In this document: positions 2,334-56,989 of the stretch, in pieces
How the letters are laid out: every line of letters starts with the position of its first letter
How positions within the stretch are numbered: the stretch's first letter is position 1
Assembly (NCBI GenBank): GCA_963729625.1
Contig: CAVSOU010000007.1
Span: 448,001-512,000, forward strand
Length of the DNA stretch: 64,000 nt
DNA from: an uncultured bacterium
GTDB taxonomy: Bacteria; Chloroflexota; UBA5177; JANWHV01
Direction: 5' to 3'
Notes under the pieces: model-generated
Database searches by the model: none
Told to the model about the DNA's origin: nothing
What the model saw: only the letters and a program-made list of their open reading frames with translations
Translations under genes and position numbers: made by a program

Positions 2334-2345
2334 CCGCCGTTCGCG

Positions 2346-36594: not shown

Positions 36595-39500
36595 TTAACC
36601 GGCGGCGTGTGCCAGGAGACGAGATCCGTGGCGCAGCGACTCCACGCCTGCGGCAATCGGCGTCTCCGCGATCTTCTCACTGGGCCGGCCAAGATAGTAG
36701 CCCTGAACGCCCTGCACGCCGCGCGGGAGCGTAACCCCTCCCGGGCCGCACTGCCGAACGAAGTCGAGCATCTCCCGTGTCTCGATGCCCTCGGCAATCA
36801 CGTAGGCGCCCATTCCGCTCGCGATGGAGATGATGCCCGCGAGCACGGCCCTCGCGGTCCTGTTCGTGAGTGCTCCATGTACCACGCCGCTATCCACCTT
36901 GATGAAGTCCATCGGAAGCTGGCTCAGCATCTCCAGCCCCGCGTTGCCGGCTCCCGTGTCGTCAAGCGCCAGCCTGAAGCCCGACCCGCGCAATCGCTTG
37001 GCATCACGCACGACCATGGCCAGACGCGCCATCGAGCGCTCCGTCAGCTCGAGCACGACACGCTCCGGTGCCAGCCCCGCTGCGCGCACGGCGCGCTCGA
37101 GGCTATCGTGCGCCAGCAGTCCGTGGTCGAGCGTTTGTGGCGAGATATTGATGAACAACAGCGCGTCGGGCGGAAGCTCCGCGGCCCTGCCCAGGATGGC
37201 GCGCCTGCAGACTGCGTCCAGGTCCTGCGCCCGCCCCATCTTTTCGGCGATATCGAATGCTTCCAGTGGACCGGCCAGGCCGAGCTCCGCGGGAGGCCTG
37301 GCCAGCGCCTCGTACGCAAACACGGTGCCCCGGGCCACGTCCCAGATCGGCTGGAACGCCACGCCCATGATCTGCTCGCTGATCAGTCTGTGTACGATCT
37401 GGCGCTGCGAGGAGGAGCTGATTGACGCACTGTCCTTCACCTCGTCGTACGTCGCGACTCTGTTGCGGCCACGCCGCTTTACGTCCTCTAGAGCCGCGCG
37501 TGCCTGTTGCTGCAAGGTGTCCGAGTCCGTATCTCCCATCGCGAGCGCGGCGACGCCGACACTCACGGTCGCTCCGGCCAGCCTCAGCTCGACTTCCCGG
37601 CGAAGGTGTTCCATGCTGGTGCGCGCCTCCGCGGGCCCGGTATGCGGCAGAATCAGGGCAAACTCGTCGCCGTGCACCCGGAAGGCGCGTGCCTGCCGGC
37701 AGGTATCCCGCAACATGCCGGCGACCTGCGTCAGGATGCGATCGCCGTGCGCCTGACCGCGCCGGTCGTTGATCAGCTTGAACTCGTCGACGTTTATCAG
37801 GGCCAAGGCGACTTGCTCTCCGTGGCGTGCGGCACGCTCGAGCTCTCGCTGCAGCTCTTCGCGGAACCAGCGATGGTTCCCCAGGCCGGTCAGGCCGTCG
37901 GTGAGGGCCGCGCGGGAGAGCTGGCGGTTCACACGCTGCAACGCAGCCATGCTCTCCTTGGTCTGCCTGACATATTGGCGCTGCACCCGGTGCATCATGA
38001 ACGCCGGCAAGGTGAACACGAGGGCGCCCAGATACCCTGTCTCGGCATAGGCGACGCCCAACAGGAGACCCACACCGCAGAGGGCCACGTAGTGCCCGGC
38101 GAGCCAGCGGTACTGGGCCAGCCAGGTTGAGCGTGCCTGCTCCCCCTCGCTCAGACTGAGCGCAGCGGCAACCAATCCCGTGTCGATCAAGAAGTATGCC
38201 GCCGCCGCCATCGCCCCCGGTGCGGCCAGTCCCGGCAAGGACCGCGCTGTGAGCGGGACGCCGGCGACTTGAATCAGCAACGCGGGCGCGAAGCCCGCCA
38301 GCACATGGGTGGCCCAGTTGTACGCCGCCCGGTGCAGGTGCTCGATATGCCGGCCACAACGGAAATGATGGGCGAGTGCGACCGCGGCGCTGACGCACGC
38401 GACGCCCGGAATGCCGCTCAGCAACGCGGCCGCAAACACGAGGCTGACGGACACGGAGACCGTGCCTCGCCCGTAGAGGTCGACCTGCGCCACTTCGGCG
38501 AGCACGGCCAGGGCCATAAAGAGCCAGATTGCCCCCGGCGCTACCTGTACACCTTGCCGCAGGCCGATCGCGGAGACGGCTGCCCCAGCGACGATCACGG
38601 TGGCGACGAACACCCATTGCAGCCAGGAGCGCTCGGCAGGCTCGCCGGGCAGCTGCGGCGGAGCGGGCGGGTTGGAGAGCTCGGGCTCCGCGCTCGCTTC
38701 GCCCGCTACATGGTCCGCCGGCATCCCCCGGCCCAGCGTTGCCGGAAGCGCGTTTGGCGCCTGAAGCGTTTCTGCGGAGGTGCGGCCCGGGTCGTGGGGC
38801 CCTGGCTTCGCTTCAATCCGTCCGCCAGGCACATCGGCCGCACAGACCACACAGTTCCGTCCTCTTGCCTTCGCCGCATAGCACGCCAGGTCGGCAGCTT
38901 GCACGAGGTCCCTGGCGTTCTCGCCGTCTTGCGGATAGCCCGCCACGCCCAGGCTCATGGTCACGCCTATGGGCTCGGCGCTGGTGGCCACCGTGAATCT
39001 CGCCGCCGCCACCGCCTGCCGCAGGCGTTCCGCCAGGGCCTCGGCCTCGGCAGGCTCGCGCTCGGGGGCGACCACGGCAAATTCTTCGCCGCCGAAGCGG
39101 CCGGCCACATCATATTCACTCGCGGTCTCCCGGATGACCCTGCCGATTCCTGCCAGCACCACGTCTCCTGCGAGGTGGCCGTACGTGTTGTTGATGTCGC
39201 GCAGCAAGTCGAGATCGGCCATGATCAGGGCCAGAGGCCTGCCGAAACGGCGGGCTCGTTCCAGTTCGGCGTCGAGCTGCAGGTTGAAGTGTCGCGCGTT
39301 GTCGAGTCCGGTCTTGCCGTCGATGTTTGCTTCATGTTTCAGCTGGGGAACCATCAGCGCTTGATAGATCAACACCAGCGGTGAGAGTGCCGCCACGGTG
39401 TACCAGGGCTCCACCTGCCAGAGCGCGGCAAGCACGAGGCCCATGAGGGCCATGACCAGGTCGAGGGTGACGCTCGTACTCTCCATCACGCCGGATTCGC

Positions 39501-40017: not shown

Positions 40018-40206
40018 GTCCGTCCTTTCCCAGCTTGCACCAATGCGGGCCGGGAGCGCAACCCGGCCGCTTCAACAGGAGTTATCGGCAGAAGGTGACC
40101 CCTTCAGCAGCCGGAAGCGGCTGAGTAAGCGGCAGAGTTTAGGGCAGAGTTGGAGCGCTGCCCTCATCCGTTGCCCGCCTGCAACGGGCGCCGCTAGCGC
40201 ACGAGA

Positions 40207-40231
40207 CCGGGGCAGGGTGTGCCTGCCCCGG
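40207..40231 (-). terminator. 10-bp-stem GC hairpin between the S8 and GGDEF-EAL genes
   Basis: CCGGGGCAGG-GTGTG-CCTGCCCCGG; no U tract. Confidence 0.4.
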
Positions 40232-40276
40232 CCAAGAGACGAAACGCGGGATCGCGTAGCCGTTGCTTCGACTCGG

Positions 40277-41857
40277 CTAGCCCCAGTAGTCGCTGCCCCA
40301 GCTTGCTGAACCCCAACTGGCCGAACCCCAGCTGGCTGAACCCCAGCTGGCTGAACCCCAACTGGCCGAACCCCAACTGGCCGAACCCCAACTGGCCGAA
40401 CCCCAACTGGCCGAACCCCAACTGGCCGAACCCCAGCTGGCCGCCGGATTGCCGGTCTGAATCGAGGCTGCCGGGGCCACACCGACGTTGGCGCTTGCCG
40501 TGCTGGGGTTCGCTACAGCCGCCGCCACATTGACCTCACCGGCACCCACCCCGCTGGTCGAGGCCACCGGCGAGGCCGTGGCCGTCAGGCGGTACTTCAC
40601 CTGATTCGGGGTCAAGCCGGGTTGGGCCTGCAGCAGCAGGGCCACCGCCCCGGAGACCATCGGCGCCGCCATCGACGTGCCGGACATGCGGAAGTAGTTA
40701 CTGTTGACGATGTTCGCGGGATGAGCGGTCGCCAGCGTATCGGAGGGACTGGCCAGGACGCTGACGATGTTGACTCCTGGCGCCACCAGATCCGGCTTGT
40801 TCATTAGGGACGTAAGCCCCGCCGTCGTGGAGATCGGGATGGTGCCAAATGAGGAGAACGATGCCAGGGTGTCGTCGCTCTGGTTTACCGTACCCTGGTC
40901 GTTCACCGCGCCCACGGTGATCGCGAAGGGGTCGTTGGCCGGGGCGAACAGCACCCCGGCGTTGGTGTTCCCGTTGTTGCCGGCTGAAACTACCACTACG
41001 ATCCCGGCATTCCAGAGCGTTTCCACCGCGGCATCCAGCGGATCCACCTGGTAGCTGTCGGCCACGGTGCTGTTCAGCGACAGGTTGACCACCCGGATGT
41101 TGCCGGTCGTCCGGTTGTTATACACCCACTGCAGACCGTTGACCACGTCGGACACGGAGGCCATGCCCTGATCGTCACTGATCTTGACGTCGATGAGATT
41201 GGCCTGGGGAGCGACGCCGATATAGGCCCCGGCAGAGTTGGCACCGTTTCCGCCGATGATCCCGGCTACATGGGTGCCATGGCCGTAGGGATCACCGCCG
41301 AAAGTCGTCCTGCTATTGATAATCTTCATGGCGACCATGTGCTCTTCGATAGCCGACGCCATGCCGCTGTCCACCACCGCGACGCCAACTCCCTGCCCCT
41401 GATACTGGGACCAGAGGGAGCCGGCGCCAATGGACTGCGGATAGACGTCATTGAGCGTCGCCGCGTTGCAGCAGCTGTAGCTCGACTTGACCACCGGCGC
41501 GTCCAGCGACACCCAGCGCACGCCGGGCATGGCGGCCAGACGGGGCACCGACCGGGCCGGCAGCCGCACGGCCAGGGCGTGGATGATCGGAAGCCGGCGC
41601 GTCACACGAGCGCCCAGACCGTCCAGCCCCCAGTTGACGCTCTGCCCGGCGTCCCGCAGCTGCACGATCACGCCGACCTGGGCGTCGGGGTGCGCCGCAG
41701 CCAGCTGCAGTAGGGCGGGCTGGGCGCGCAGCGGTGCCGCCGCCTGCACCGGAGAGCGTCCTTGCAAGGGCAGGCAGGCCGCTAGGCCCAGCAGCAGGGC
41801 GACACACAATCTGGGCAGGCTAACCGACCGGTTCACTGTTCCATCTCGCGCACTCAA
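40277..41857 (-). CDS. Secreted subtilisin-family (S8) serine protease with C-terminal (ASWGS)10-DYWG tail
   Basis: Signal peptide, prodomain, catalytic VVDSG / HGTHVAG / MSGTSMAAP, SAGN oxyanion motif. Confidence 0.95.
   Translation of the reverse strand: MSARDGTVNRSVSLPRLCVALLLGLAACLPLQGRSPVQAAAPLRAQPALLQLAAAHPDAQVGVIVQLRDAGQSVNWGLDGLGARVTRRLPIIHALAVRLPARSVPRLAAMPGVRWVSLDAPVVKSSYSCCNAATLNDVYPQSIGAGSLWSQYQGQGVGVAVVDSGMASAIEEHMVAMKIINSRTTFGGDPYGHGTHVAGIIGGNGANSAGAYIGVAPQANLIDVKISDDQGMASVSDVVNGLQWVYNNRTTGNIRVVNLSLNSTVADSYQVDPLDAAVETLWNAGIVVVVSAGNNGNTNAGVLFAPANDPFAITVGAVNDQGTVNQSDDTLASFSSFGTIPISTTAGLTSLMNKPDLVAPGVNIVSVLASPSDTLATAHPANIVNSNYFRMSGTSMAAPMVSGAVALLLQAQPGLTPNQVKYRLTATASPVASTSGVGAGEVNVAAAVANPSTASANVGVAPAASIQTGNPAASWGSASWGSASWGSASWGSASWGSASWGSASWGSASWGSASWGSASWGSDYWG
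40292..40441 (-). repeat. 10 x 15-bp tandem repeat encoding ASWGS
   Basis: Units such as GCC AGY TGG GGT TCR; variation between units is synonymous. Confidence 0.95.
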
Positions 41858-42039
41858 TGGGTCCTCCTTTGCGCTCTACACCTGGATTGCGCGTGTGCAG
41901 GACGGCTCCCAGATTCATTTCCCAGGAGATACCATTCCTGCTCCACACGATTGTACTTTGGAGGCAAGGGCTCGAACACCCCTAAACGAGGGGGCACACT
42001 CTTGCTAGCCCGTCTGGGTCGTCGGTTGCATGGCGACGC

Positions 42040-42705
42040 CGATACGCGCGCGAGCGCGGCCAGCGAGGCGCGACTGGTGAAGCCGCAATCGGCGACGATG
42101 CCGGCCAGTCGACGCGCACCCACGACCTGCCGCACGCGGCGCGCGAGCACGGCAGCCAGGGCGGCTTCTCGGTGCCGGCCGCGCCCGAGCACGTAGGTGA
42201 TCACCTGGCCCGTGCCGGTATCCACGGCCAGGTAGAGGCGATAGCCGCGTAGCCGCCGACTGCGTCCACCCGCCCACCCTTTGAGGAAGCGCGTCAGCTT
42301 GCCCCGGCCCCAGTACGGCAGCTGGTGGGCATCCAGGGCCACCCACACCCGCCCGGAGCGGCTCGTCAGACTGGCCTAGTAGGCGGTTTCGACCGACCGC
42401 CGCACATCGTGGGCGGAGAATGCGCGCACACTCCGCGCCAGCGTGCGCGCACAGGGCAGGCGGCGCAGACCCAGCAGCACCGGCAGTAAGGGTTCCGCCA
42501 GCAGCCGCAAATGAAACGGCCGCCCGCTGCCCCGCCAGGCCAGCACCAACCAGAGCAACGCCAGGCTCAGACTGGAGAGGCCGCGCTTCGTCCGGGCCAA
42601 AAAGCGCTCCAACCCCAGCCCTTGCGCATACACCAAGAGCGCGGGCAGCGGCACGACGTTCGTTGGTCCGCTCGCCGACATCCGGCCGCTTGGTACACTT
42701 GCCAT
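42040..42705 (-). mobile_element. Degenerate DDE transposase fragment (IS4/IS1380-like), internal TAG, 3'-truncated
   Basis: ORFs 42376-42780 and 41854-42348 share a frame, separated by TAG at 42376-42378; LPCARTLAR, VALDAH, IVADCGF. No terminal repeats recognised. Confidence 0.65.
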
Positions 42706-42879
42706 GAGGGATCGCCTTCCTGGTTCCGGCTTTGATACTACCTTCCAGGATGCGCGATCCCTCCGTATTGCGAGGCTCAACTGTCCAATCTACGCTAGCA
42801 CTTTGGCGCGGCCTATCGCATCGGACGCCAGGCGGATGGGCACCGGCGTTATGACCAGGCCTCAGGCAGTTGGTTGCAT

Positions 42880-43404
42880 TTAGGAGCCCCAGTTGGCGTT
42901 TGCATGCACCGCTTGCGCGACGACGGTCGGAACCACCACCGTGGTGATGGCCTGGCCGCTCAGGCCCGACACCGTCGACGCCTGGTACAGCACGGTTACC
43001 ATATCGGTTGACAGCACCCTCGCCGTCACAGAAACGGCCACGGCCGGGCCGCTCACGCTCGCCGTGGTCACGACGGTGTATGTTCCGGGGCTGCCGTCGG
43101 CTACATAGGTGTACGATTCGTTCGCGCCGGTAAGCAGCTCACCCGTCACGGCGCCACCCTTAGGACCGTGGATAGCGTATGTGACGCACTGCACCTGCGA
43201 GCTTGCCGCCGATATCGTGGCGACGACCTGGATCAGTGTGGTGGACGAGCCGGACGCCGTGGGCGCGGAAACGAGCAGAATCGGGTCACGCCGGCTGGCC
43301 ACGGCGGCGTGCGCGCCCTGGGTCTGCGGGAGGATCCCGCCCACGGTGCCCGCCGCTATCGCCAGACCAGCCAGGATGCGTGTGATGCCTGTCAGCTTTG
43401 TCAC
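42880..43404 (-). CDS. Secreted beta-rich protein ending ANWGS (paralog A)
   Basis: GGAGG RBS; signal peptide ending AHA; clear paralog at 52926-53444. Confidence 0.88.
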   Translation of the reverse strand: MTKLTGITRILAGLAIAAGTVGGILPQTQGAHAAVASRRDPILLVSAPTASGSSTTLIQVVATISAASSQVQCVTYAIHGPKGGAVTGELLTGANESYTYVADGSPGTYTVVTTASVSGPAVAVSVTARVLSTDMVTVLYQASTVSGLSGQAITTVVVPTVVAQAVHANANWGS

Positions 43405-44071
43405 GTATAACCTCCATTACCGCCGCGGCACGAATGCATCCGTCTTGCCTTAACAACCCAGCCCGGGAGCGGCAGGCGGGGGCTAGCTGAATCCCGTCGC
43501 ACGGTGCCGGCCCTCCACGAGAACCCCCCGCCACGCGCGGGTGCCCCGTCCAGGACTGGCGCACGCATGCCGGGCTTCTGCCTGGTCCGGCTTCCAGCCG
43601 GTGTTGCTAAGGCGAGCGGCGGCTCCCACGGCTGCGGCGAGCCCGTGGTCACCACCTCGGCGCAGCCGGCAGGCCGCCCTCCCCGCGGGAAAGGGACGGT
43701 GTCCGTCCCTCGCGCCAAGGCCCCTTCCGCAGCACGCTCCCTGACCCCAGCACCCCGGGTTCCGGTCCGATGCACGATCTCGCACCAGGAGCCGCGGACA
43801 ATACGGTCGCGCAGCGCACTGCTTCGCTAGCGTAAGCCAGTATGGGCTCGGCGCACATCCTCGTTCGAGTAAGGCCGCACCTGGCCTGTTCAGGGGGGGT
43901 AGCTGGAGGCTGCGCCACAGTACCACGCACTCTCACCAGCCGCCGAAACCTTGAGCCATGCTACAAGTGGGCGGTGCGGCGGTGGCGGGCCGGGGTGAAT
44001 GGCGTGAGTGGCACGCCATACGTGCCATTGTGAGCCGTTACTTCCCATAGTACATTGGGCCGTGACAGGCC

Positions 44072-47000
44072 ATGTGCACAGTCATCGCGCTAGCACGGCT
44101 TGCGTGCCCCTTGCGAGGACGCGAAGCCTGGCGACGCTTGGCGTTTTTTGCATGCCGGACGGGCGTTCCAGCCATACGGGATCGGTCGTCGGCAACGAGC
44201 TGGAAGGATTGTGTCGTGAGCAGCCTGGCACGGTTTGTCAGTGCGTGCCATCTGAGAAGCTCTGAGTGCCGATCGTGGCGACCAAGGCCGGCCATTCCGC
44301 TGGCCGTGCTCATGGTGGTGATGCAAACGCTGGTGCCGCTCGCGGCGACAGCGCCACAAACCGCGCACGCCGACGACACGCCCTGTGTCGTGTCCAGCCC
44401 TGCCGATGACGGCAGTATCGGGACCCTGCGCACGATCGTCGGCCTGGGCGTGTGTCCCGAGATTACCTTCGACACCGCGCAGATGGGTGCCGCCACGATC
44501 ACGCTTACCTCCGGCCCGATCCAAATTGGCACGGGCGACAGCTCAAATCTGCAGACGGTGGCGATAGACGGCGGCAGCGGCGTGACCATCCAGGGAGATG
44601 ACGTAGACTCGATCTTTACCGTCACGACCGGCGGTATTCTGACACTCAATAACCTGACTATTAGTGGCTCCGGCGATAGCGCCATCTGCAACAATGGCAC
44701 GCTAAACGTCGAAGGCTCCGTCCTCTCTGGCAACAGCGGTTTGAATGGCGGCGGCGCCATCTTCAACGACGGGTCCCTCGGCGCCGTCGCCACGCTCACC
44801 GATACGGCCATCACGAGCAACGCGGCGCCCATGGGCGGCGCCATTTACAATTATGGCGACGGGGGTACGGTCACGCTGACAATTGCCAACAGCACGCTGA
44901 GCGGCAACAGCACGTTCGGCGGCTCCGGCGGCGCTATCTCCGACGTCGGCGGTCCCGGCGGCGCCATCTACAACGATGGCGGCGCAGGCGCTGTGACTGT
45001 GGCAATTGCCAACAGCACGCTGAGCGGCAACAGCGCGAACTCCGGCGGCGGCATCTACAACGACGGCGACGGAGGCACGGTGAGTGTGACGATCGCCAAC
45101 AGCACGCTGAGCGGCAACAGCGCGCTCGTGGTCAGGCGGCACAGGATTCCGATTGTCGGCGCCGGCGACGGGCTCTACAACACGGCGGATGGTGGCGACG
45201 CGTCCCTGGCCGTGCACAGCAGCATCCTCGCCGACGGCGCGACCAACGAGTGCGCGGGCGACAGCTCGATCACCGACGACGGCTACGACCTCGCGCTTGG
45301 GACGACGGACGGCAACGGCTGCGCCCTGGACTCCGGCGACGAGGACGTGTCCACGGACGACCCGAGCTTCAGCGGCGGCGAACCCACGAATGGCGAGCTG
45401 GCCGATAATGGCGGAGCGACCCAGACCATCGCACTCGGTCCTGGGAGCATCGCCATCGGCAACGGCGACTGTCAGGCGTACACGGACTCGACGAGCGAAG
45501 ATGTGTATGCGGCCGTCACCACGGATCAGCGAGGGGCCGGATACCCGCGCAAGGATCCTTGCGACATCGGCGCCTTCGAGGCCGCCGGCGATGCGGTAAC
45601 GGCAACGGACACCCCGACGGCCACGGGCACAGCCACCTTGACTGATACCTACACACCGAGTGACACGGCTACGCTCACCGAGCCACCGAGCGACACCCCG
45701 ACGGACACGGCCACGGACACGGCCACCACGATCGATACCTCTACACCGAGTGACACGGCGACGGACACAGCCACGGTCACCGAGCCAGCGAGCGACACAC
45801 CGACCGCGGCCGATACATCCACGAACACGTACACGCCGAGTGACACGCCGACGGGCACGGCCACGGCGACCGATACCTCTACACCGAGTGACACCCCGGC
45901 GGACACGGCCACGGTCACCGAGCTACCGAGCGATACCAGTACGGCTTCCAATACACCGGCTCCCACCAACACAGCAAGCGACACCCCGACTGTCATCGGC
46001 ACGGCAGGCTATACCCCAGCAGCTACGGACACGCCAAGCAACACAGCGACGGATACCTACACGGCCAGTGCCACACCGAGCAACACGCCGACCGTCACCA
46101 ATACGCAGACAGATACGCCCACCAGCACGTACTCGCCAACAGCCATGCCGACCGATACCCACCCCCCAGCGGATACCTCGACGGGCACAGATACGGCGAG
46201 CGTGACCGCGGTCGCCACAGGCACAGCCAGTAGTACGCCGGTCCCGACAGACACGGCCACCGACACGCCCGCTGACACCAGCACAGCCAGCGACACGCCA
46301 ACCCCTACGGACACGGCGAGCGGTACGCCTTCGGCGACTCACGCGCCCACGAGCACGGTCACCGGCACGCCGACGGATACGGCTACGAGCACGCCGACGG
46401 CTACGGCTACCAGCACGAGGACGGAGATGGCGGTCGATCCGCCGGTCAATCTGCCCACGAGCGCGCCGTACGTGCTGTCATCGCCAACCGCGACTGGGGC
46501 GGCCGTGACCTCGAGCACGGCTACACCAGCCGACACCGGCTCCGCCCTTCCGCAGTTCACCAGTACGGCGATGCCAACGGCCACTGGCAGCAGCGCCTCC
46601 GCGGACGCGGCCACCGCCGTGCCACCCGTCCCCACCCCGGCAGGGCACGCCTCGGCGCTGGCAACGAACGGGACCATGCCCGCAACGTTCCAGGGTGGTC
46701 CGGCGATGGCCGCGGTACTGAGCGGCTCCACGCAGATCGCCCTGCGCGTCGCCTCGGATGCCGTGGCCCGCGGACAGACCCTCACCTTGAACGCATCGCT
46801 TGAGTCGTATGGCGGCTCATTGACAGGCAGCGTGACCTTCAAGGAGGGCAAGCTGGTGCTGGGCACCGCCAGCGTGCACGACGGAGTGGCCTTCCTGACG
46901 GTGACCATGCAGGCTGTCGGCCCCCACCATATCGTGGCCGTATATGACGGCCCGCACGGCTTGGTGGTAAGCACGACACCCCTCTCCATCACGGTCGGGC

Positions 47001-48613: not shown

Positions 48614-51600
48614 TCAGCTACCCTCGGGCCGGAGCTCAACCGTCGGCCGGCTGAGCCACTCGACGAGCTGCTCCGCCGGTAGCGGAACAGACAGGTAGAA
48701 GCCCTGGGCGCTGTCTGCCCCCAGGCCGCAGAGCTGGGAGTAGGTGTCACCATCCTCCACCCCCTCGGTAACCACATCCATTCCCAGCGAGCGCGCCAAT
48801 CCAATGGTGGAGGCGACAATCGTCTGGTCGCCCACATGCCCTTTCATCCGCTGCACAAACGTGCGGTCGATCTTCAGCTCTGTCAGCGGCAAAACCGACA
48901 GGTAGGCCAGCGACGAGTATCCCGTGCCGAAGTCGTCGATTGCCAGCCGCACGCCCATGCCGGCGAGTCGTTCCAGGCTCGCTTTCGTGCCCTCCACGTC
49001 GGCCATCACCACGGTCTCCGTTACCTCCAGGGTCAGGCGTTGCGCCGGGACACCATGCTGTGCAAGCAGTCGCTCTACGGTCGCGCACAGGTCGGGGTCA
49101 CGCACGTCACAAATCGACAGGTTGACGGCAACTTGCAGGTGCCACCCCTTGGCCGCCCACACTGCCCACTGCCGCAGCGCCGTATCGAGCACCCACTTCG
49201 TCAATGGGATGATCACGCCCGTCTGCTCGGCCAGAGGGATGAACTCTTCAGGCAGCAGCAGGCCGAGGTGAGGGTGCTGCCAGCGCACGAGGGCTTCGAC
49301 GCCGTAGACCTGTCCGGACGCGAAGTCCGTCGTCGGCTGGTAATACAGGCGCAGCTCACCGTGCTCGACTGCGACCCGCAAGTCAGACGCCAGACCGTGA
49401 CGCCCCCGATCGTGCCCGTTGAAACTGGGGTCGTAGAGCGCATAGCCAAGCTGCCCGCGTTTGGCCGCGTACATGGCCACATCCGCACATCCGAGCAGCG
49501 TAGCGGCATCCCGGCCGTGTTCGGGATATACGGCAAGGCCCACGCTGGCGCCAATGGACAGCGGATGGCCTTCCACCACAAAGGGCGCCTGCATAGCGGC
49601 GTGGATCTGCTGGGCCACCACCTGCGCGCCCGCTCCGTCCGCCCGTGGCAGCACGATGGCGAACTCATCTCCGCCCAGCCGCGCCACAAAATCGCTCGCG
49701 CGTACGCTACCGCGCAGGCGGTCGGCAACCTGCCGCAGCAAGGCATCACCCATCTGGTGACCAAGAGTATCGTTGACCTCCTTGAAGCGGTCGAGGTCGA
49801 GACTGAGCATGCTCGCGCACCCGGCATCCTGGTCCGCGCCTACCATGGCGTGTTCCAGGCGATCGAGGAACGCGATGCGGTTCGGCAGACCGGTCAATGC
49901 ATCGTGCTGCGCCATATGGGCCAACCGCGTCTCCAGCTGCTGCTGGGCCGAAATGTCGGTCTGCGATCCCGCGATCCGCACGGGCTCTGATCCCTCGCGC
50001 ACCACGGCCCCGCGGCACAGCATCCACCGGTAGCTGCCATCGCGGTGTAGCAACCGGTACCGGTACTCGACTCGGTCGGAGCCTACCGCGATCTGCTGGG
50101 CGATGCCGCGTTCGAGCGCGCCACGGTCATCAGGATGGACCAGCTCAAACCAGCTGCCGGGTACGGCTTCGACCTCATCATCGGCAAACCCCGCCATCTC
50201 TTTCCACCGCGCCGAGTAGTAGACGCGGTTATCGCGCAAGTCCCAATCCCACAGGCCGTCGTTCGTCCCTTTTGTGGCCACCGCGTACCGCTCCTCGCTC
50301 ACACGGAACGACTGGAGCAGCTCGCGCTCCAGTGCCGCCATCAGCAGCACGGACCACTGCCAGACGGCGGCGGCGTCCGAAATCGTATGGCTCTCCACCG
50401 GGCTCAGAAGGGCCAGGGCGCCCCAGTCGCGGTCGGCCGTCTGCAGCGGCAGCACCATGGGCACATAGAGTGTGGCGTTCGGCGCGGTTCGCTCGACGAC
50501 GTCAAGCGGAGGGAACGACTCCGGGGGACAGCACGCGCCGGCCTGTACAGTCGACCCGAGGTCATGCGGGTAGACACCGGCGATGGTCAGCTCGCCCCCG
50601 GGGGTGTCGTGCTGCCAGAGCCCTAGGCATCCAGCCACGGCAGGCGTGTCGCGCAGCCACGCCAGATCACGCACGCTCGCTTTGCCCGGTTGCAGCATGG
50701 CGAGGCTGGTGTGGTAGTTCTGGTTCGAGCTGACCTGCGCGTCAACCATGCTCTCTACGAAGGGTAGGCGCGCGGCATACAGCAATTCGGTGCGCAGCTC
50801 GTACAGAACATCGTTGACGCGATCCGTCACATTGCTCGGATGGTTGCCGGCGCCCAGCACGGCCAGTACCGCCCGTTCGAGCAGAAAAATGGCACGATTC
50901 GCCGCCTCGACGCCGTGCGCGCAGGCGCACAGGTGCCGGCACGCCCCATTGAGTTCCCCTGGTAACGGCAGCGGCCCGCCATGCAGGGCAACCTCCAGGG
51001 CGGCAATGCAGCGGTCGATAGCCGCGGATGCCGCGCGAACACCCTTGGCGAACGCCTCGGGCGCGTCGCCGCACACTTCTCGTGCCAGGGCCTGCCGAAG
51101 CACCGTTGCCCAAGCCCCCTCTGTAGCGCTATCCGGCTGCCACGTTCGCTGCCTGACGCCGAACGAGGAGCACCCGCACGATTGCCGATAGACCGGCTCC
51201 GACGGCACAAACACACGCTCCGACGGTACGTGCTGGCCCGCCAGCATGGTCAATACCAACCTGGCGGCCTCCGCGCCGAGTGCCTCGTTGTCCTGGTGGA
51301 CGGTGGTCAAGGCCGGTGCTGCCATGGCGTTGAGCGCCAGGTCGTCGAAGCCGGTTATCGCGAGGTCGCCGGGTATCCGGTACCCCGCGTCCTGCATGCG
51401 CGCCATCAGGCCCAGCGCGTTCTGATCTGTGGCCGCGCAGACGGCTGTGCAGGTCATGCCGGTAGCGAGGAGTGCCTCCGCGGCAGCAAGACCGCCGGGC
51501 TCGTTCATGTCCGGTGCGTCGAAGCATAGCCCTGGATCGGGCTCGATGCCCACTTCCCGCAGCGCGCCCACGTACGCCGCAAAGCGGTCGCGGGTATCCT

Positions 51601-52180
51601 CAAACGCGAGGCACCCCACGAAACCGATACGCCGGTGCCCATGGTCCACCAGGTGCCGCACTATTGCCGCCATTCCCGTCCGGTTGTCAGGGAACACGGC
51701 AGGTATACCGAGGTCCTCGTAGCCGGCGCAAACGCTGACCAGCGGCTTGCCGGACTGTTTGAGACGCTGCAGCGTGCCGCGACCCACGGCGTCGAGCACC
51801 ACGACATACCCGTCCACGAGGTCGCGCGCGTAGGGCACGTACGCTCTCGCGTCGCCCGCCACGGGGACCTCGCGCCACTGAGGGAGCGCCTGGATGCCGA
51901 TGACGCGTCCCCCTGCGTGTTTCGCGGCCCGATGCAGGCCGGCAATAACGTTGCCGAAGAACTCATCGCCGAGGGCAGTGGCGATGATCCCGATGGTCGG
52001 TTGCCGGCGATCAGCGCGACCGCGCGTCACACGCGTGGTCGACGGTCGCACGGCTTCTGCCGATGCGGCCGCGGGTTCCGGGCTGTCGCGCCGGCTTCGT
52101 AGCGTCCCGCGAACCGGACGCGTGCTCACCGGCGACTCTCGCCGCGTAGTCCCAGCCCTACGATGGCGGTGTCTTGCCAC
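48614..52180 (-). CDS. LacI-type ligand-binding sensor - PAS - GGDEF - EAL protein (start possibly 52129)
   Basis: HLVDHGHRRIGFV, GFDD, RQSCGC; DGLWDWDL; RASD..LGGDEF; VEALVRW, DDFGTGYSS. Confidence 0.92.
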   Translation of the reverse strand: MARHRHRRAGTTRRESPVSTRPVRGTLRSRRDSPEPAAASAEAVRPSTTRVTRGRADRRQPTIGIIATALGDEFFGNVIAGLHRAAKHAGGRVIGIQALPQWREVPVAGDARAYVPYARDLVDGYVVVLDAVGRGTLQRLKQSGKPLVSVCAGYEDLGIPAVFPDNRTGMAAIVRHLVDHGHRRIGFVGCLAFEDTRDRFAAYVGALREVGIEPDPGLCFDAPDMNEPGGLAAAEALLATGMTCTAVCAATDQNALGLMARMQDAGYRIPGDLAITGFDDLALNAMAAPALTTVHQDNEALGAEAARLVLTMLAGQHVPSERVFVPSEPVYRQSCGCSSFGVRQRTWQPDSATEGAWATVLRQALAREVCGDAPEAFAKGVRAASAAIDRCIAALEVALHGGPLPLPGELNGACRHLCACAHGVEAANRAIFLLERAVLAVLGAGNHPSNVTDRVNDVLYELRTELLYAARLPFVESMVDAQVSSNQNYHTSLAMLQPGKASVRDLAWLRDTPAVAGCLGLWQHDTPGGELTIAGVYPHDLGSTVQAGACCPPESFPPLDVVERTAPNATLYVPMVLPLQTADRDWGALALLSPVESHTISDAAAVWQWSVLLMAALERELLQSFRVSEERYAVATKGTNDGLWDWDLRDNRVYYSARWKEMAGFADDEVEAVPGSWFELVHPDDRGALERGIAQQIAVGSDRVEYRYRLLHRDGSYRWMLCRGAVVREGSEPVRIAGSQTDISAQQQLETRLAHMAQHDALTGLPNRIAFLDRLEHAMVGADQDAGCASMLSLDLDRFKEVNDTLGHQMGDALLRQVADRLRGSVRASDFVARLGGDEFAIVLPRADGAGAQVVAQQIHAAMQAPFVVEGHPLSIGASVGLAVYPEHGRDAATLLGCADVAMYAAKRGQLGYALYDPSFNGHDRGRHGLASDLRVAVEHGELRLYYQPTTDFASGQVYGVEALVRWQHPHLGLLLPEEFIPLAEQTGVIIPLTKWVLDTALRQWAVWAAKGWHLQVAVNLSICDVRDPDLCATVERLLAQHGVPAQRLTLEVTETVVMADVEGTKASLERLAGMGVRLAIDDFGTGYSSLAYLSVLPLTELKIDRTFVQRMKGHVGDQTIVASTIGLARSLGMDVVTEGVEDGDTYSQLCGLGADSAQGFYLSVPLPAEQLVEWLSRPTVELRPEGS

Positions 52181-52832
52181 TCGGCGCCGCCGACCCGCAG
52201 AGCTCGCGCAGGTCCATAGCGGCTTCCGGCAGGAGGCCGTAACATGCCTCTCATCCCCTTAATTCGCGAAGACTCCTGATCGCGTCTACTTCTTGCAGCC
52301 TACACCAACAGGGTAGCCATGATCACTCCCCCAACAGGGTTGGCAGGTGGAGCGGCGTTATTGCGGACGCGATTGGTCGCCGCTGTGCCACGCGGGAGTT
52401 GAACCAACCACTCGCCGCGCTCTGGCCGATGTCCGGATCGCCTGCGTCTGACGGAGCCACAAGGTTGTGGAGGCATGCGCTGACGGTGGACCGTGCTGTG
52501 CGCCTTCACGCCACGTGGACGTCTGATCGGCCATTGGCCAAGAGGCCCTACGCCGGCAGCGAGGCTGCGGCTCCATGTCGCACGTTTGCAGACCCGCGAG
52601 GCGTCGCCAGACTGGCTAGCAAGAGCGGGCCACCTCGTTCGGGTGATGTGTCGGTCAGGCGTCACGCCTACTATTGGGTTGGAGCGCGGACGTATCGCTA
52701 AGGAAGTGCTCACAACGCCGGCGTGATGGCCATGCAGACGGTGGCTGCGTTCGCCGCGCTCGTCCGAGGAGGGATACAGGTAGAAAGCCAGAGAGGGAAC
52801 ACTGTCCCGGTCGCGATTTGTGTCAAGAGCAG

Positions 52833-52895
52833 GCCAACTGGGGCTCCGCCAACTGGGGCTCGGTAAATTGGGGTAGCGACTACTGAGGGAACTAA
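52833..52895 (+). pseudogene. Remnant 3' end of an S8-type WGS-repeat tail
   Basis: ANWGS-ANWGS-VNWGS-DY-TGA-GN-TAA parallels ...ASWGS-DYWG* of the S8 gene. Confidence 0.75.
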
Positions 52896-52925
52896 CCCCG
52901 GATCTCGATGAAAGGGAATGCATGT

Positions 52926-53444
52926 ATGAAGAAGACAATCTCGGGCCTCGTCCGCGGCACGGCATGTGCGGTAATCGTGGCAAGTGGCCTGGCGGGGTTG
53001 TGGCAGCACACGCCCGGCGCCCATGCCGCCGTGGCCAGCCGGCGTGACCCCATTCTGTTGATTTCCACGCCTACGGCGTCTGGTGCCACGCTGACTCTGG
53101 TTCAGGTCGTGGCCTCCATCTCCGCGAACAGCACGCAGGTGAAAGGTGTCAGCTTCGCCATCCACGGTCCAGTCGGTAGCTCGCTGACGAAAGAACTCTT
53201 GACCGGCGCGGGCGAAACTTACACGTACACGGCGGACCGCGTGGACACCTCCTACTCGACCGTGACCACCGTTACCGTGAGTGGGGCGGCCGTGCCGGTG
53301 ACCGTGACCTCCAGTGTCCTGGCAACCGATATGCAGACGGTGCTGTACCAGTCGACTGCCGTGGCTGGCATGAGTGGCAAGGGTATCACCACGACGGTAT
53401 GCCCGGTCGCCCTGGCCAATACCAATGCCGGCTGGGGGTCGTAG
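52926..53444 (+). CDS. Secreted beta-rich protein ending AGWGS (paralog B)
   Basis: AAAGGGA RBS; shares GAHAAVASRRDPILL, AIHGP, ELLTGA, TDMxTVLYQ with paralog A. Confidence 0.88.
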   Translation: MKKTISGLVRGTACAVIVASGLAGLWQHTPGAHAAVASRRDPILLISTPTASGATLTLVQVVASISANSTQVKGVSFAIHGPVGSSLTKELLTGAGETYTYTADRVDTSYSTVTTVTVSGAAVPVTVTSSVLATDMQTVLYQSTAVAGMSGKGITTTVCPVALANTNAGWGS

Positions 53445-53504
53445 GCAGCCCTCACAGCGGCCGTGCAATAGCAGGTAGTGAAGGTAATGAACGGAGAAAC
53501 AATC

Positions 53505-53687
53505 GTGAGTGGACAGAGGAAGAATCGATCGTTGCCGGTGCTCTGGCGCCGGATCGCCGTGTTGGCCCTGGTAATTCTTGGCACAGGCCTCTTCATCAGC
53601 CAGCCGGCACATGGCCTGGGCGGCACGAATACGGCAGCATGTGCGACATGTCACGTCGACAAGCCGTCCGCCGGCTGGGGGTCGTAG
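53505..53687 (+). CDS. 60-aa secreted peptide ending CATCHVDKPSAGWGS
   Basis: GGAG RBS plus GTG; basic n-region, hydrophobic core, AHG cleavage site; same terminal codons as paralog B (GCC GGC TGG GGG TCG TAG). Confidence 0.78.
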   Translation: MSGQRKNRSLPVLWRRIAVLALVILGTGLFISQPAHGLGGTNTAACATCHVDKPSAGWGS

Positions 53688-53769
53688 GGGCCACAGCGAG
53701 CAGCTGCAATGGTTGGGTGCGCGGCTCCCGGCCGAAGCTGCGCTCGTGTACTGGACAGGCAACGCTCGG
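53681..53769 (+). repeat. Copy 1 of an 89-bp imperfect direct repeat
   Basis: Ungapped hand alignment with 54024-54112: 69/89 identical. Confidence 0.8.
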
Positions 53770-53798
53770 GGTGCGGCCTAGGCCGCACCCCGAGCGTT
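53761..53798. repeat. Perfect 38-bp palindrome
   Basis: AACGCTCGGGGTGCGGCCT|AGGCCGCACCCCGAGCGTT. Confidence 0.9.
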
Positions 53799-53875
53799 TG
53801 GGCTCGTGGTCAGACCGGCCGGCCGTGGCGCATCCGCTCTGGCCAGGGCCCGCGCAAATCCTGAACGCCTGGCAG

Positions 53876-54030
53876 ATGGCTCGCCGACATCCTGTGAGCA
53901 CATGGGCCACCGGTACCGGATACTTCCGGGGCGTTTCGCACTCGAGGGTAGTAGTTGCTTTGCACGAGCTTGGTGGCAACTGCAGCGACCGGGTAACTCT
54001 CGGAGCCATCGGCTCACTGGGTGGTCGTAG
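53876..54030 (+). pseudogene. Decayed tandem copy of the 60-aa WGS peptide gene
   Basis: MARR..GTGYF..HELGG resembles WRR..GTGLF..HGLGG; EPSAHW-G[t]GG-TCG-TAG resembles KPSAGWGS*; followed by the same 89-bp repeat. Confidence 0.6.
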
Positions 54031-54112
54031 GCGCCACACCGCGCGGCTGCGCCGGTTGGGGGAGCGACTGCCGGTCGCAGCAGTGCTAGTGTACTGAATA
54101 GGAAATGCTCGG
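54024..54112 (+). repeat. Copy 2 of the 89-bp imperfect direct repeat
   Basis: See 53681-53769. Confidence 0.8.
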
Positions 54113-54181
54113 ATCGCGGTGTACGCCGCGTCCCAGCCATGAGTTCTCCCGGGTGTTCGGAACGAGGTCGGACGAGCAGCC

Positions 54182-56989
54182 ATGTCACTACGTGCCCGGG
54201 CCTATGTCGGCAGCGTGCTTGGCGCCAGTGTCGCGCTGAGCGTGCTCGCGCTGCTTCGCTTCGCCCCAACGCTCGCGCTGTGTGAGACCTTTGCCGCCTT
54301 GACCGTCCTGGCCAGCGTGGCCCAGCTGTTCAAGGCCGAAGCCCCCAACCACGTGCTGCTCTACGCCAGCCCCATCTTCTTCTTTGCCGGTGTCCTGCTG
54401 CTGCCGCCCTTCCTGTTCGTTCTGTTGGTGGCTGTTCCGCACATGGTCGAGTGGGGTGTCGAGCGATTGCGGCACAGTCCTCACCTCCGTGCCTGGTACT
54501 TGCAGCCGTTCAATATCGCAATGAACTGGATATCCGGGCTGAGCGCGTACTGGCTGTACGCGCAGGTCAGTGGTGAGAACACCGCCAGCGTGCTTTCGAC
54601 CACCGTGCTCGCGGGTCTGGCCGCCGTTGCCTGCTTCGTCGTCCTCAACCACATCCTGCTGGGGCTGGCCCTCGCCCTCGCGCGTGGCGTGAGCTGGCGC
54701 GAGTCGGGCATGTTCGAGCTGTGGAGCCTGCTCACCGACCTGGTGCTGGCCTGCATGGGCCTGGTCGTGGCGGAACTCTGGCGGATACATCCCGCGTTCG
54801 TCGTGCCGGCCCTCGCTCCCCTGGTATTGATGTACCAGTCCCTGATGATCCCACGGTTGAAGCAGCAAGCCGAGATCGACGCCAAGACCGGTCTGTTCAA
54901 CTCCGGGCATTTCAAGACCATGTTTGGCGCCGAGCTGGCCCGGGCCACGCGGTTTGATCGGCCGCTCACGGTGATCATGGCCGACCTGGACCTGCTGCGT
55001 AACGTCAACAATCAGTACGGCCATCTCGCCGGTGACGTTGTTCTCGCCGGGATCGGCAAAATCATCCGTCAGACGATGCGCGAGTACGATATCAGCGGCC
55101 GATTCGGCGGTGAAGAATTCGTCCTGGTTGCCCCTGAAGCAGGTCTTACAACGGGCGAAAGCCTGGCAGAGCGACTGCGGCAGGCGGTAGCCGATGCTCG
55201 TTTTCCGATCGGGGCAGACGCCGCGCCGATCGGCGTGACGATGAGCCTGGGAGTAGCGTGCCACCCCCTGGACGGGAACACCGCGGAAACGTTGATCTAT
55301 GCAGCGGATATGGCGGTCCTCGAAGCCAAGACCAGGGGACGCAACTGCGTGGTGCGCGCCGCGGACCTGTCATGGGACCGCCGCGTCGCTCAGCCGGCCC
55401 CGCCTGAGCCCGATGCGGCCTCCGCCGGCGCCGTGACGCCGCAGCGATCGTCGCTGCAAGCAGAGGGGCCTCAGATACCGCCCGTCAGGCTCCTTGCGCC
55501 TGAAAGCCTGCGGAGCGCCTCTCCTCCCGAGACAGCCGAGCCAGCGTATCCAGGGACAAAGGCTCTGCCCCTGCGCGCAGGCTGGCTCGGCCAGGGCGCG
55601 GAACGCGATGGCGCGGATCGCGATCTGCCGGTGAGCAGCCAACGCGCGACGCAGGCGCCACCGCGTCTCGCGCGAATGCTTCCCCAGCCTGGGGTGGCCG
55701 TGGCCACGATGCTGCTGGCCATTGGCACAGTGCTTGCGGGGGTGCGGTACGAGGACATCTCGCTGGGATTGCAGCCCTTCGGCGAGATCCTCACGGCCGT
55801 ACTCCTGGCCGCCACACTCGTTCTGACTTACCGGTATCCGATTCATATCCGCCTGCACCTCAAGGTGCAGGTGTCTACGATGGTCTACTACCTGGTGGCC
55901 GCGCTGCTGCCCCTATCGTTGGGCATGGGTGTTGCGGCGCTGGGCACCCTGCTGGGCGAAGTATCCGTGCGCCGGCAGCGCAAGCTCTACCCGAGCGATA
56001 TTGCCACGGCCGTCGGCCGATGGACGGTGTTGGTGTTTCTGGGCACCTTGGTAGCACATGTGCCCGCACAAGGAGATGTCGCCCTGGCGCCGTTGGCGGC
56101 CTGCGCGGTGGTGCTGGCAATGGGCGACCTCCTCACGTTGCCGCTGATCATCGCATCGATAACCGGTGAGCGCCCGCTTCGCGTGCTGCGCGCGCTGGCC
56201 ACGGACACCGCCGTGCCAGATGGCATCCAGTACTTGCTTGGCTTCCTGGCGATTCTCGCATCCCAGCGCGCGGCGTGGGTACTGGTTCTCTGTGCGGTGC
56301 CTGCCGTTCTCGTTTACCAGGCCACGAAAGCCATGCATGAGGTGCAGGACTCCACGCACCATCTCCTGGAGGGCATGGCCGACACGGTAGACCTCCGCGA
56401 TTCCTACACCGGGGGTCATTCGCGGCGCGTGGCGGACTTCTGCCGCCGCATCCTGGATGAACTGGATCTCATGGGCCCCGATGCCGAGATGATCGTCTCG
56501 GCCGCGCGCGTGCATGATATCGGCAAAATCGCCATTCCCGACGCGATCCTCATGAAGCCGGGGCCCCTGACGGGCGAGGAGCGCGCCCAGATGCAGACGC
56601 ACGCGGAGCGTGGCGCCGAGGTGCTGGCCCGCCATCGAGATTTCCGGCATGGCGTGGCTGTTGTGCTGCACCACCACGAGGCGTGGGACGGCAGTGGGTA
56701 TCCGCGCGGGCTCAAAGGGCTCGCAATCCCGTTCGGAGCACGGTTGATGGCCGTAGCGGACGCCTTCGACGCTATGACAAGCGACCGGCCGTATCGCGGC
56801 GCGATGTCAGCAGCAAAGGCGGCAAGTATCTTGCGGCAGGGACGGGGTCTGCAGTGGGATCCTCAAATGGTCGATGCGCTGTTGCGCTGCATCGATGTTC
56901 AAACCGTGCTGGCCGAGCTCGCGGTGCTGCCGAGCCCCGACTGCACGACAGCCCAACGCCCCTCCAGCACGTCCGCGGCAGGCGCTTGA
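54182..56989 (+). CDS. Multi-TM sensor - GGDEF - second TM block - HD-GYP protein
   Basis: N-terminus paralogous to 36595-40017; REYD..FGGEEF; YTGGHSRRV, VHDIGK, HHEAWDGSGYPRGL. Confidence 0.93.
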   Translation: MSLRARAYVGSVLGASVALSVLALLRFAPTLALCETFAALTVLASVAQLFKAEAPNHVLLYASPIFFFAGVLLLPPFLFVLLVAVPHMVEWGVERLRHSPHLRAWYLQPFNIAMNWISGLSAYWLYAQVSGENTASVLSTTVLAGLAAVACFVVLNHILLGLALALARGVSWRESGMFELWSLLTDLVLACMGLVVAELWRIHPAFVVPALAPLVLMYQSLMIPRLKQQAEIDAKTGLFNSGHFKTMFGAELARATRFDRPLTVIMADLDLLRNVNNQYGHLAGDVVLAGIGKIIRQTMREYDISGRFGGEEFVLVAPEAGLTTGESLAERLRQAVADARFPIGADAAPIGVTMSLGVACHPLDGNTAETLIYAADMAVLEAKTRGRNCVVRAADLSWDRRVAQPAPPEPDAASAGAVTPQRSSLQAEGPQIPPVRLLAPESLRSASPPETAEPAYPGTKALPLRAGWLGQGAERDGADRDLPVSSQRATQAPPRLARMLPQPGVAVATMLLAIGTVLAGVRYEDISLGLQPFGEILTAVLLAATLVLTYRYPIHIRLHLKVQVSTMVYYLVAALLPLSLGMGVAALGTLLGEVSVRRQRKLYPSDIATAVGRWTVLVFLGTLVAHVPAQGDVALAPLAACAVVLAMGDLLTLPLIIASITGERPLRVLRALATDTAVPDGIQYLLGFLAILASQRAAWVLVLCAVPAVLVYQATKAMHEVQDSTHHLLEGMADTVDLRDSYTGGHSRRVADFCRRILDELDLMGPDAEMIVSAARVHDIGKIAIPDAILMKPGPLTGEERAQMQTHAERGAEVLARHRDFRHGVAVVLHHHEAWDGSGYPRGLKGLAIPFGARLMAVADAFDAMTSDRPYRGAMSAAKAASILRQGRGLQWDPQMVDALLRCIDVQTVLAELAVLPSPDCTTAQRPSSTSAAGA

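Follow-up and report, generated by a model that had tools for sequence, protein, structure and literature searches.

In Bacillus, subtilisin-type proteases release the Phr pentapeptides from the C-terminal ends of precursors that are exported. In heterocyst-forming cyanobacteria, the RG(S/T)GR pentapeptide is carried by PatS, HetN and PatX, and it is the motif, not the carrier, that is active (PMC7761841, PMC12756182). The LapG/LapD pair consists of a periplasmic protease and a membrane receptor for cyclic diguanylate (c-di-GMP; PMC3032545, PMC3032553, PMC4359373). The sensor domain MASE9 (PF20972) is polytopic and membrane-embedded, has short loops and is fused to HD-GYP, GGDEF or GGDEF-EAL outputs; its defining paper (Galperin and Chou, 10.1101/2021.11.05.467447) predicts eight transmembrane (TM) segments, of which two are short and make up an intramembrane hairpin, and lists the ligand as unknown. 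Here, we describe a locus in an uncultured bacterium of the phylum Chloroflexota, in which exported proteins that end in, or repeat, the pentapeptide Ala-x-Trp-Gly-Ser (AxWGS) are encoded upstream of membrane proteins with GGDEF, EAL and HD-GYP domains. We tentatively consider the Trp motif to be an extracellular recognition element for the membrane modules of these putative sensors. The analyzed stretch, hereafter the window, comprises 64,000 nucleotides (nt) with a GC content of 60-69% (G000:C7:448001-512000, that is, positions 448001 to 512000 of contig C7) and belongs to a draft genome of 5.4 Mb in 21 contigs.

The locus resembles each of the described systems in part. As in the Phr case, the precursors are exported and carry a C-terminal pentapeptide, and an S8 protease is encoded nearby, but the candidate receptor is a membrane module, and a Pfam scan of the neighboring genes, which included no dedicated RRNPP search, turned up no Rap/RRNPP-type receptor or Opp system beside the carriers, but membrane GGDEF/EAL/HD-GYP proteins, a transposase remnant and a glycosyltransferase. 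The likeness to RG(S/T)GR is that one pentapeptide motif occurs on several unrelated proteins of a bacterium of multicellular type, at or near the C-terminus, whereas the cyanobacterial peptides, according to the same sources, act on the cytoplasmic HetR, the carriers here are exported, the candidate receptor is a membrane enzyme, and the motifs themselves are unrelated. As with LapG and LapD, the gene for an exported protease lies beside the gene for a membrane GGDEF/EAL protein, and both may couple c-di-GMP to surface proteolysis by a similar logic; however, the protease here is a serine subtilase and not a cysteine protease of the LapG type, the catalytic motifs of the sensors are intact, HAMP and periplasmic domains are missing from them, and the components are non-homologous except for the GGDEF and EAL folds. 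With MASE9, the sensors share a polytopic module with short loops and HD-GYP, GGDEF or GGDEF-EAL outputs, yet the modules of the window gave no match to PF20972. No description of the present system was found in full-text searches of open-access papers and bioRxiv. The elements of the two cassettes are as follows (ORF, open reading frame; aa, amino acids; motif endings directly precede the stop codon).

36595-40017 (-): sensor 1, 1140 aa; MASE9-like TM module, GGDEF domain (GGEEF), second MASE9-like TM module, degenerate GGDEF domain (HGDEF) and EAL domain; from the ORF, two Pfam GGDEF matches, one EAL match, and motifs
40277-41857 (-): exported S8 subtilase, 526 aa; leader, I9-like prodomain, catalytic domain and a tail of ten ASWGS units followed by DYWG; from the ORF and Pfam PF00082
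40292-40441 (-): array of ten 15-nt units coding for ASWGS; from Tandem Repeats Finder (TRF) and translation
42880-43404 (-): protein A; exported all-beta domain with a disordered C-terminal extension of ~15 residues, ends ANWGS; from the ORF and an AlphaFold2 (AF2) model
52833-52886 (+): remnant of an S8 3' end, ANWGS-ANWGS-VNWGS-DY and stop, within ORF 52674-52886, which ends ANWGSANWGSVNWGSDY and stop
52908-53444 (+): protein B, paralogue of A, ends AGWGS; from the ORF and alignment
53478-53687 (+): precursor of a small exported peptide, 69-codon ORF, ends AGWGS; from the ORF, cleavage site by eye
54003-54030 (+): EPSAHW, frameshift and stop, possibly what is left of the 3' end of another peptide gene; weak, from a 28-nt match
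54182-56989 (+): sensor 2, 935 aa; MASE9-like TM module, GGDEF domain (GGEEF), second MASE9-like TM module and HD-GYP domain; from Pfam GGDEF, HD_5 and HD matches, and motifs

The four intact carriers (S8, A, B and the peptide precursor) all start with a basic and hydrophobic N-terminal leader, called by eye and from hydropathy, in agreement with an earlier reading of the same DNA that was made from the sequence alone (the sequence-only reading). Five of the six AxWGS carriers listed in that reading are exactly as described, but the sixth, said to end in AHWGS at 54030, requires a 1-nt frameshift: the 28 nt that match the peptide gene at its 3' end contain a 1-nt insertion, with EPSAHW and the stop codon (54028-54030) in different frames, and are weak evidence for a decayed copy. 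The carriers are of three types that are unrelated apart from the tail, as had also been proposed, namely the S8 protease, the mutually paralogous proteins A and B (57% identity), and the peptide; Pfam and NCBIfam contain no family that matches A, B or the peptide. Both cassettes lie upstream of, and are co-oriented with, the paralogous multi-TM GGDEF proteins at 36595-40017(-) and 54182-56989(+), and beyond the window, the genome has a third cassette on contig C11 and a second copy of the peptide gene on contig C10, the latter upstream of a different multi-TM GGDEF-EAL gene. The C11 cassette encodes an A-like protein ending in VSWGS, then an S8 protease with the tail (VNWGS)n-DYWGS, and then a TM-GGDEF-TM-HD-GYP protein of 947 aa that is 64% identical to sensor 2; its S8 gene is split over frames, representing either a pseudogene or an assembly error.

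WGS endings as such are not enriched in the genome. Translation in six frames yielded 11 of them among 63,295 stop-to-stop segments of at least 50 aa, compared with 5-17 for five permuted tripeptides, and 20 among 129,275 segments of at least 20 aa. Only six of the WGS-ending segments contain a signal-peptide-like hydrophobic stretch, i.e., A, B, the peptide, the C10 copy of the peptide, the A-like protein of C11 and the S8 protease of C11, and each of the six either precedes a membrane GGDEF gene by no more than ~1 kb or shares a cassette with one. The genome has only 21 GGDEF matches in 5.4 Mb, and therefore the four separate placements of carriers upstream of membrane GGDEF genes are far from random, although paralogous cassettes are not independent. 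The protease genes point in the same direction: W-tails are present on only 2 of the about 9 S8 genes of the genome, both of which adjoin MASE9-like GGDEF genes, while none of the other 7 lies less than 10 kb from a GGDEF match.

The S8 protein is a subtilase by its match to PF00082 (E 1.9e-45; 155.8 bits versus a curated cut-off of 21.8). Its catalytic triad of D163, H196 and S395 is intact (VVDSG at 163, HGTHVAG at 193-199, GTSMAAP at 393-399), and the three columns are invariant or near-invariant in 86 homologues. For the DNA of the tail, TRF reported a period of 15 nt with 9.9 copies and 93% matches (40296-40443). In the AF2 model, built from 86 sequences, the mean predicted local distance difference test score (pLDDT) was 81, with confident prodomain and catalytic domain, and the tail residues 470-526 had pLDDT values of 26-36 and no regular structure, a low confidence that still allows for a fold. 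The comparison with homologues covered the best 120 of 7617 sequences with E <=1e-10 among 8000 scored candidates, which are from Chloroflexota wherever the source is named. At least three tandem xxWxx units are present in 119 of these 120, with 4-17 units per tail (median 8) and the consensus [V/A][N/S]W[G/N]S. The tail ends in WGS in 7 and in W in 13, DYWG is found within the last eight residues in 59, and a terminal D[YF]W cap is conserved in 73 of the 120. The repeat is thus a trait of the whole family and not peculiar to this locus. Taken together, the low pLDDT of the tail and the near-universal tandem units suggest that the tail behaves as a conserved disordered array of a linear motif and not as a folded domain.

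Pentapeptide-repeat proteins contain A(D/N)LXX repeats that form a right-handed quadrilateral beta-helix. The S8 tail shares their five-residue period, and on paper, the A/V-N/D-aromatic pattern would accommodate ANWGS and VNWGS; however, the Pfam pentapeptide model has no match on the window S8 tail, and AF2 gives the tail no fold. A precomputed PF01469 annotation exists for some of the S8 homologues only. Another Trp periodicity was observed in two S8-like ORFs (L093 and L094), which end in arrays of the seven-residue units GGQTWTG or GGDTWTG; a sensor was not seen in their 1.5-kb flanks.

The pairing of Trp-tailed proteins with the membrane module holds across the class and the phylum. The N-terminal TM module of sensor 2 was found in 4 of 21 genomes of the class, with a W-carrier directly upstream at every locus (this tally and that of homologues of A, found in 9 of 41 related genomes, both count the unpublished genome G018 as a non-match). 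The loci are the three described above, one in the congener G001, where an A-like protein ending in AVWGS is encoded ~120 nt upstream of the sensor homologue, one in G008 with an S8 gene for (ASWGS)n-DYWG upstream, and one in G006, where an S8 gene is upstream and the locus is split across contigs. With an alignment of five modules, 24 loci were retrieved from named public genomes of Herpetosiphonaceae, Roseiflexaceae, Kouleothrix, Anaerolineales, Ardenticatenaceae and others, a set that includes the G008 and G006 records again. Among the genomes with the pair is that of Kouleothrix aurantiaca (L066), which can be cultivated. A co-oriented ORF with W-repeats ends 61-355 nt upstream of the module homologue at 15 of these 24 loci; of the further loci, one has a 3-unit remnant, and at two, a MASE9-like HD-GYP gene homologous to the TM-HD-GYP half of sensor 2 intervenes, with the protease gene upstream of it. 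The reverse query gave a similar picture. From a phylum-wide sample of 91 genomes, 11 had matches to the C-terminal 207 aa of the S8 protein, and a MASE9-like c-di-GMP gene is directly downstream at 5 of the 7 loci with xxWxx arrays outside G000. Two of these five encode TM-HD-GYP proteins, and the membrane part of these shares 28-31% identity with the second TM module of sensor 1. The other two array loci have a nucleotide-cyclase-like gene downstream in one case and, in the other, a broken S8 gene without any such partner. The pairing of protease and sensor holds from either query direction and is old. The link between W-motif carriers and membrane c-di-GMP enzymes that the sequence-only reading had drawn is thus seen in all cassettes of this genome, in its congener G001, across Chloroflexota for the protease, and in the distant metagenome-assembled genome (MAG) L071, in which an unrelated secreted ORF of 92 aa, with an internal SLVNWGS and the end FDVNWGS, lies ~540 nt upstream of a sensor homologue.

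Several loci depart from the common arrangement. In L091, an S8-like ORF with (QMRWD)n repeats (680-2506(-)) is followed by a class III nucleotide-cyclase-like gene (1-1142(-)) and not by one for a c-di-GMP enzyme. An Ardenticatenaceae MAG contains an ORF of 1021 aa (L082, 1747-4812(+)) that ends in W/G-rich units (VSWGGGYAWGGGYAWGG) and is located between a W-tailed S8 gene and a MASE9-like HD-GYP gene. Two tandem W-tailed ORFs precede one sensor homologue in a Roseiflexaceae MAG (L062, 3553-6647(+)) and in a Chloroflexia MAG (L079, 4701-6881(+)). A search of 401 genomes for a DNA pattern of five TGG at 15-nt spacing was dominated by unrelated tandem repeats, the reversed-pattern control matched as well, and no count from it was used.

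The sensors have the features of active enzymes. RFGGEEF is present in the first GGDEF domain of sensors 1, 2 and 3, the EAL motif is intact, and sensor 2 has intact HD-GYP motifs (HDIGK, HHEAWDGSGYP; PF13487, E 5e-37), as does its C11 paralogue. The second TM-GGDEF half of sensor 1 (aa 470-854) is 27% identical to aa 8-390 of sensor 2. The membrane module is harder to classify. Pfam and NCBIfam have no family for it; PF20972 matched neither TM module at E values up to 5, nor the six-frame translation of the genome at E values up to 1. In the ESM Atlas, the nearest clusters of both TM modules of sensor 2 are MASE9 clusters (0.95 and 0.91), and a crude hydropathy scan of sensor aa 1-226 gave 6-7 peaks. 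A profile of 25 modules matched 1109 cluster representatives at E <=1e-3, 602 at 1e-10 and 191 at 1e-30. Among 150 listed matches, the 74 that were sufficiently long were scanned for domains and contained GGDEF in 63 cases, HD_5 (HD-GYP-type) in 28, MASE9 PF20972 (E <=1e-3) in 12, some of which may come via a second TM module, HATPase_c in 9 and EAL in 3. Of the relatives with a single TM module, 2 of 22 had PF20972 hits on the same region, both below the cut-off (22.4 and 18.0 versus 24.3 bits). The module is best called a divergent MASE9-like subfamily, not a proven member of MASE9.

The A family illustrates how a carrier may have acquired the motif. In the AF2 model of protein A, residues ~40-158 form a compact all-beta domain with pLDDT >90, and the tail has a value of ~50. 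For this fold, Foldseek found no match in the PDB at E <=0.001, and the best Z score of VIA-align (wide), 5.1, is within the stated noise of the tool. An alignment of 15 family members shows a C-terminal extension of ~15 residues ending in WGS on the four proteins of this genus (A, B, the C11 copy and the G001 protein), which the 11 distant members lack. The four tailed proteins are 32-57% identical to one another, the terminal WGS is invariant, and the residues before the Trp vary (ANWGS, AGWGS, VSWGS, AVWGS). The invariance of WGS among proteins of such low identity thus suggests that the tail is a maintained add-on, which was probably gained once. The disordered tails of A and S8 would fit a linear motif rather than a folded domain. 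Single xWGS tails were found in this genus and in L071. A Cys just after the leader is kept in the distant members of the A family and lost in the tailed ones. The distant homologues have an AxA site two to four residues upstream of this conserved Cys, and a lipoprotein interpretation of the Cys was not adopted, as cleavage by signal peptidase I is equally possible.

The peptide gene is the smallest carrier, and the predicted mature product has ~23 aa, LGGTNTAACATCHVDKPSAGWGS and stop, with a cleavage site chosen by eye. Ten residues ahead of its AGWGS end, it contains CATCH, a CxxCH sequence that resembles a site of haem-c attachment; chance or a disulfide are also possible. The second copy, with an identical tail, is at C10:421073-421288, and the C10 copy joins window positions 52588-52708 directly to 53413-53792, thus without the S8 remnant and B. 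A perfect self-complementary stretch of 38 nt (53761-53798), seen as an opposite-strand self-hit in blastn, ~75 nt 3' of the peptide gene and inside the segment copied to C10, is perhaps a transcript end, although it was not called by the terminator scan. The membrane GGDEF-EAL gene on C10 (L002 10857-14241, equivalent to G000:C10:421857-425241) consists of two overlapping frames of 601 aa and 574 aa, which indicates a frameshift or an assembly error.

Where tailed A proteins are encoded beside a sensor-2-type enzyme, the protease gene is a remnant of only ~62 nt (cassette 2; 82% identity with the C11 S8 gene at its 3' end), split over frames (C11), or not found with the 207-aa query (G001, 95% complete). 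The only intact S8 gene is in cassette 1, where an insertion sequence (IS) remnant separates it from A. The decay or absence of the protease gene where A is tailed argues against the protease being needed to process A-type carriers, and this swap of carriers speaks for the motif, rather than proteolysis, as the conserved working part. The motif is portable, in view of the three unrelated carriers here and the unrelated ORF of L071.

The following mechanism would accommodate these observations. The xWGS tail would be a single copy of the Trp pentapeptide unit x-x-W-G/N-S that occurs in tandem in the subtilase tails. The protease would be the ancestral carrier, and in this genus the beta-domain proteins A and B and the ~23-aa peptide would have gained one copy of the motif at a free C-terminus and appear to take over from the protease. 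Presented by any exported carrier, the Trp motif would serve as an extracellular recognition element, either a ligand or a tether, for the MASE9-like module, and its presentation would set the balance between c-di-GMP synthesis by GGDEF domains and hydrolysis by EAL and HD-GYP domains. The carriers and their leaders, the conserved pairing of the genes, the disorder of the tails and the intact catalytic motifs are observed; we infer the contact between motif and sensor, the direction of signaling and the effect on c-di-GMP, and put the chance that this recognition reading is correct at somewhat below even.

A lead that favors direct contact between motif and module comes from the most conserved motif of the module, QLFK(A/V)EAPNH, in which Lys51 is kept in 11 of 11 pairs with Gly after the Trp of the unit and replaced in 6 of 6 pairs with Thr or Asn at this position, a correlation that represents at most about four independent changes and is uncorrected for phylogeny. 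A joint fold of the TM module of sensor 1 with S8 residues 455-526 scored 0.00 with no controls run and is uninformative either way. The small number of changes behind the Lys51 correlation is one of several points that weigh against the recognition reading. A few evolutionary events account for the paralogous cassettes within one genome and for the tails of the A family. All predicted loops of the membrane module are short, so that little surface would be exposed to a ligand. The C10 copy of the peptide gene precedes a multi-TM GGDEF-EAL protein of a different TM family, at a distance of ~570 nt or more. The protease is absent at 6 of the 24 sensor loci, two of which have less than 1 kb of upstream DNA, and with DYWG(x) or W as the ending of most S8 tails, WGS at a free carboxy-terminus is no general feature. 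Finally, tail-less A genes are located directly upstream of HD-GYP/GGDEF genes with a MASE9-like membrane module of the TM2 type, i.e., the type of the second module of sensor 2, at 4 of 12 loci in 3 genomes. The tail is therefore not the sole link, and the adjacency of A needs no motif; the association of A with TM2-type sensors predates the tail. An extended version, which we consider unlikely, is a two-input switch in sensor 2 and its paralogues, in which module 1 (cyclase) would read the Trp pentapeptide of the carrier and module 2 (HD-GYP) the beta-domain of A as the older partner, in view of the tail-less A genes before TM2-type sensors; with the fusion of the modules in this genus, A would have gained the Trp unit and made the protease dispensable.

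The sequence-only reading had envisaged a motif that is released or presented with help from S8. In the release model, S8 would cleave the other carriers as well as its own tail, and a diffusible AxWGS pentapeptide would accumulate like a pheromone, with the membrane module as its sensor. Multi-copy pro-pheromones indeed resemble the array of identical units, the carriers are exported, the catalytic triad is intact, and the number of units varies from 4 to 17 among the best 120 homologues. However, it is just where the A-type carriers are tailed that S8 is reduced to a remnant, frameshifted or not found, the prevailing DYWG(x) or W ends leave no common free end that would define the unit boundaries, and the conserved D[YF]W cap (73/120) would have no role in pure release; release of a pentapeptide by S8 is not supported by these data and appears improbable. 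Control could also run from the inside to the outside, with a membrane c-di-GMP protein that captures or releases the protease and the tailed proteins via their Trp tails, depending on cytoplasmic c-di-GMP, so that the sensor would govern proteolysis at the cell surface. The Lap protease/receptor pair is reported to work in this way (PMC3032545, PMC3032553, PMC4359373), here as well the gene for a protease stays next to that for a membrane c-di-GMP protein, and the degenerate second GGDEF domain of sensor 1 (HGDEF) could be a receptor site. Nevertheless, the sensors keep GGEEF, EAL and HD-GYP motifs and resemble enzymes rather than receptors, they have short loops instead of a periplasmic output domain, and the components are unrelated to LapD and LapG, which makes such control doubtful, with a low probability in our estimate.

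The Trp units might instead tie the exported proteins to the membrane interface or to a wall polymer, in which case the sensor gene would be merely co-regulated and no direct interaction would take place. Tails that are Trp-rich, disordered and at the C-terminus of exported proteins would suit an anchor, and the loss of the Cys in the A family coincides with the gain of the tail and could reflect a change of anchor. The motif is, however, limited to these carriers in 5.4 Mb rather than spread over surface proteins, W-tailed S8 genes pair with one particular membrane module while other S8 genes do not, and a single five-residue unit would be a weak anchor. A sortase- or exosortase-type signal does not match either, with the motif at the very C-terminus and no TM helix or basic tail following. 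For these reasons, the surface-sorting tag that the sequence-only reading had offered as its alternative is not favored, and we regard envelope anchoring in general as having little likelihood. The single tails could, lastly, be non-functional leftovers of rearrangements that fused 3'-end pieces of S8 onto neighboring genes. The S8 remnant 22 nt before gene B and the IS remnants in cassette 1 would be in line with such events, but WGS at the C-terminus is kept in four A-family members of 32-57% identity from two species, the residues before the Trp differ as expected under selection on WGS, and L071 has an independent carrier. It is very improbable that the tails are mere relics.

The surroundings of the cassettes contain further genes related to c-di-GMP and traces of rearrangement. 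A remnant of a DDE_Tnp_1 transposase (Pfam) is located between A and S8 at 41854-42780 (-), and the stretch 42050-42798 is 91% identical to C11:630373-631119. Scans for promoters and terminators in both cassettes gave nothing above shuffled expectation. Public sequencing runs contained only small portions of the stretch; among them, one 263-nt contig of a metatranscriptome library matches 53068-53330 within gene B with 6 differences, which is no proof of transcription. MshEN domains bind c-di-GMP. A family-2 glycosyltransferase with an N-terminal MshEN domain (57152-59188 (+); Pfam MshEN, 6e-15, and Glyco_trans_2_3) is encoded 163 nt downstream of sensor 2 in the same orientation, followed by a multi-TM protein of 546 aa (59304-60944), and is a possible c-di-GMP-controlled polysaccharide output. 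As a conserved output it was rejected, since no homologue was present beside the sensors at 30 other loci searched, and it is specific to this genome. Between the cassettes, 44072-47374(+) encodes an exported protein of 1100 aa that combines a choice-of-anchor Q domain and a Big_3_5 domain with long repeats rich in Thr, Asp and Pro, and 48614-52180 encodes a PBP-PAS-GGDEF-EAL protein. On the other side of sensor 1, a protein of 1230 aa, in which a GGDEF-like region at the N-terminus is joined to a large ATPase/TPR-like body (30911-34603(+)), is adjoined by an HTH-NB-ARC/AAA protein (34911-36473(-)). In total, the window contains four or five c-di-GMP genes, compared with about 20 genome-wide.

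New in the present system are the Trp unit on carriers other than a protease, the swap of carriers, and a small peptide that could be used directly as a reagent. MASE9-type sensors are widespread, the profile of the subfamily described here alone matching 1109 cluster representatives, and their signal is given as unknown in the defining paper (10.1101/2021.11.05.467447). The candidate signal is a short linear motif on a dedicated protease and, in this genome, on small non-protease carriers, which can be synthesized as a peptide and tested on the sensors. If the two-input switch were true, MASE9-type sensors would have their first defined ligand in x-x-W-G-S, which would also be a portable address tag for wiring any exported protein to c-di-GMP. 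To our knowledge, Chloroflexota is a phylum with almost no characterized signaling, and a possible wider role of the motif would be to link exported proteins to the c-di-GMP control of surface behavior in this phylum.

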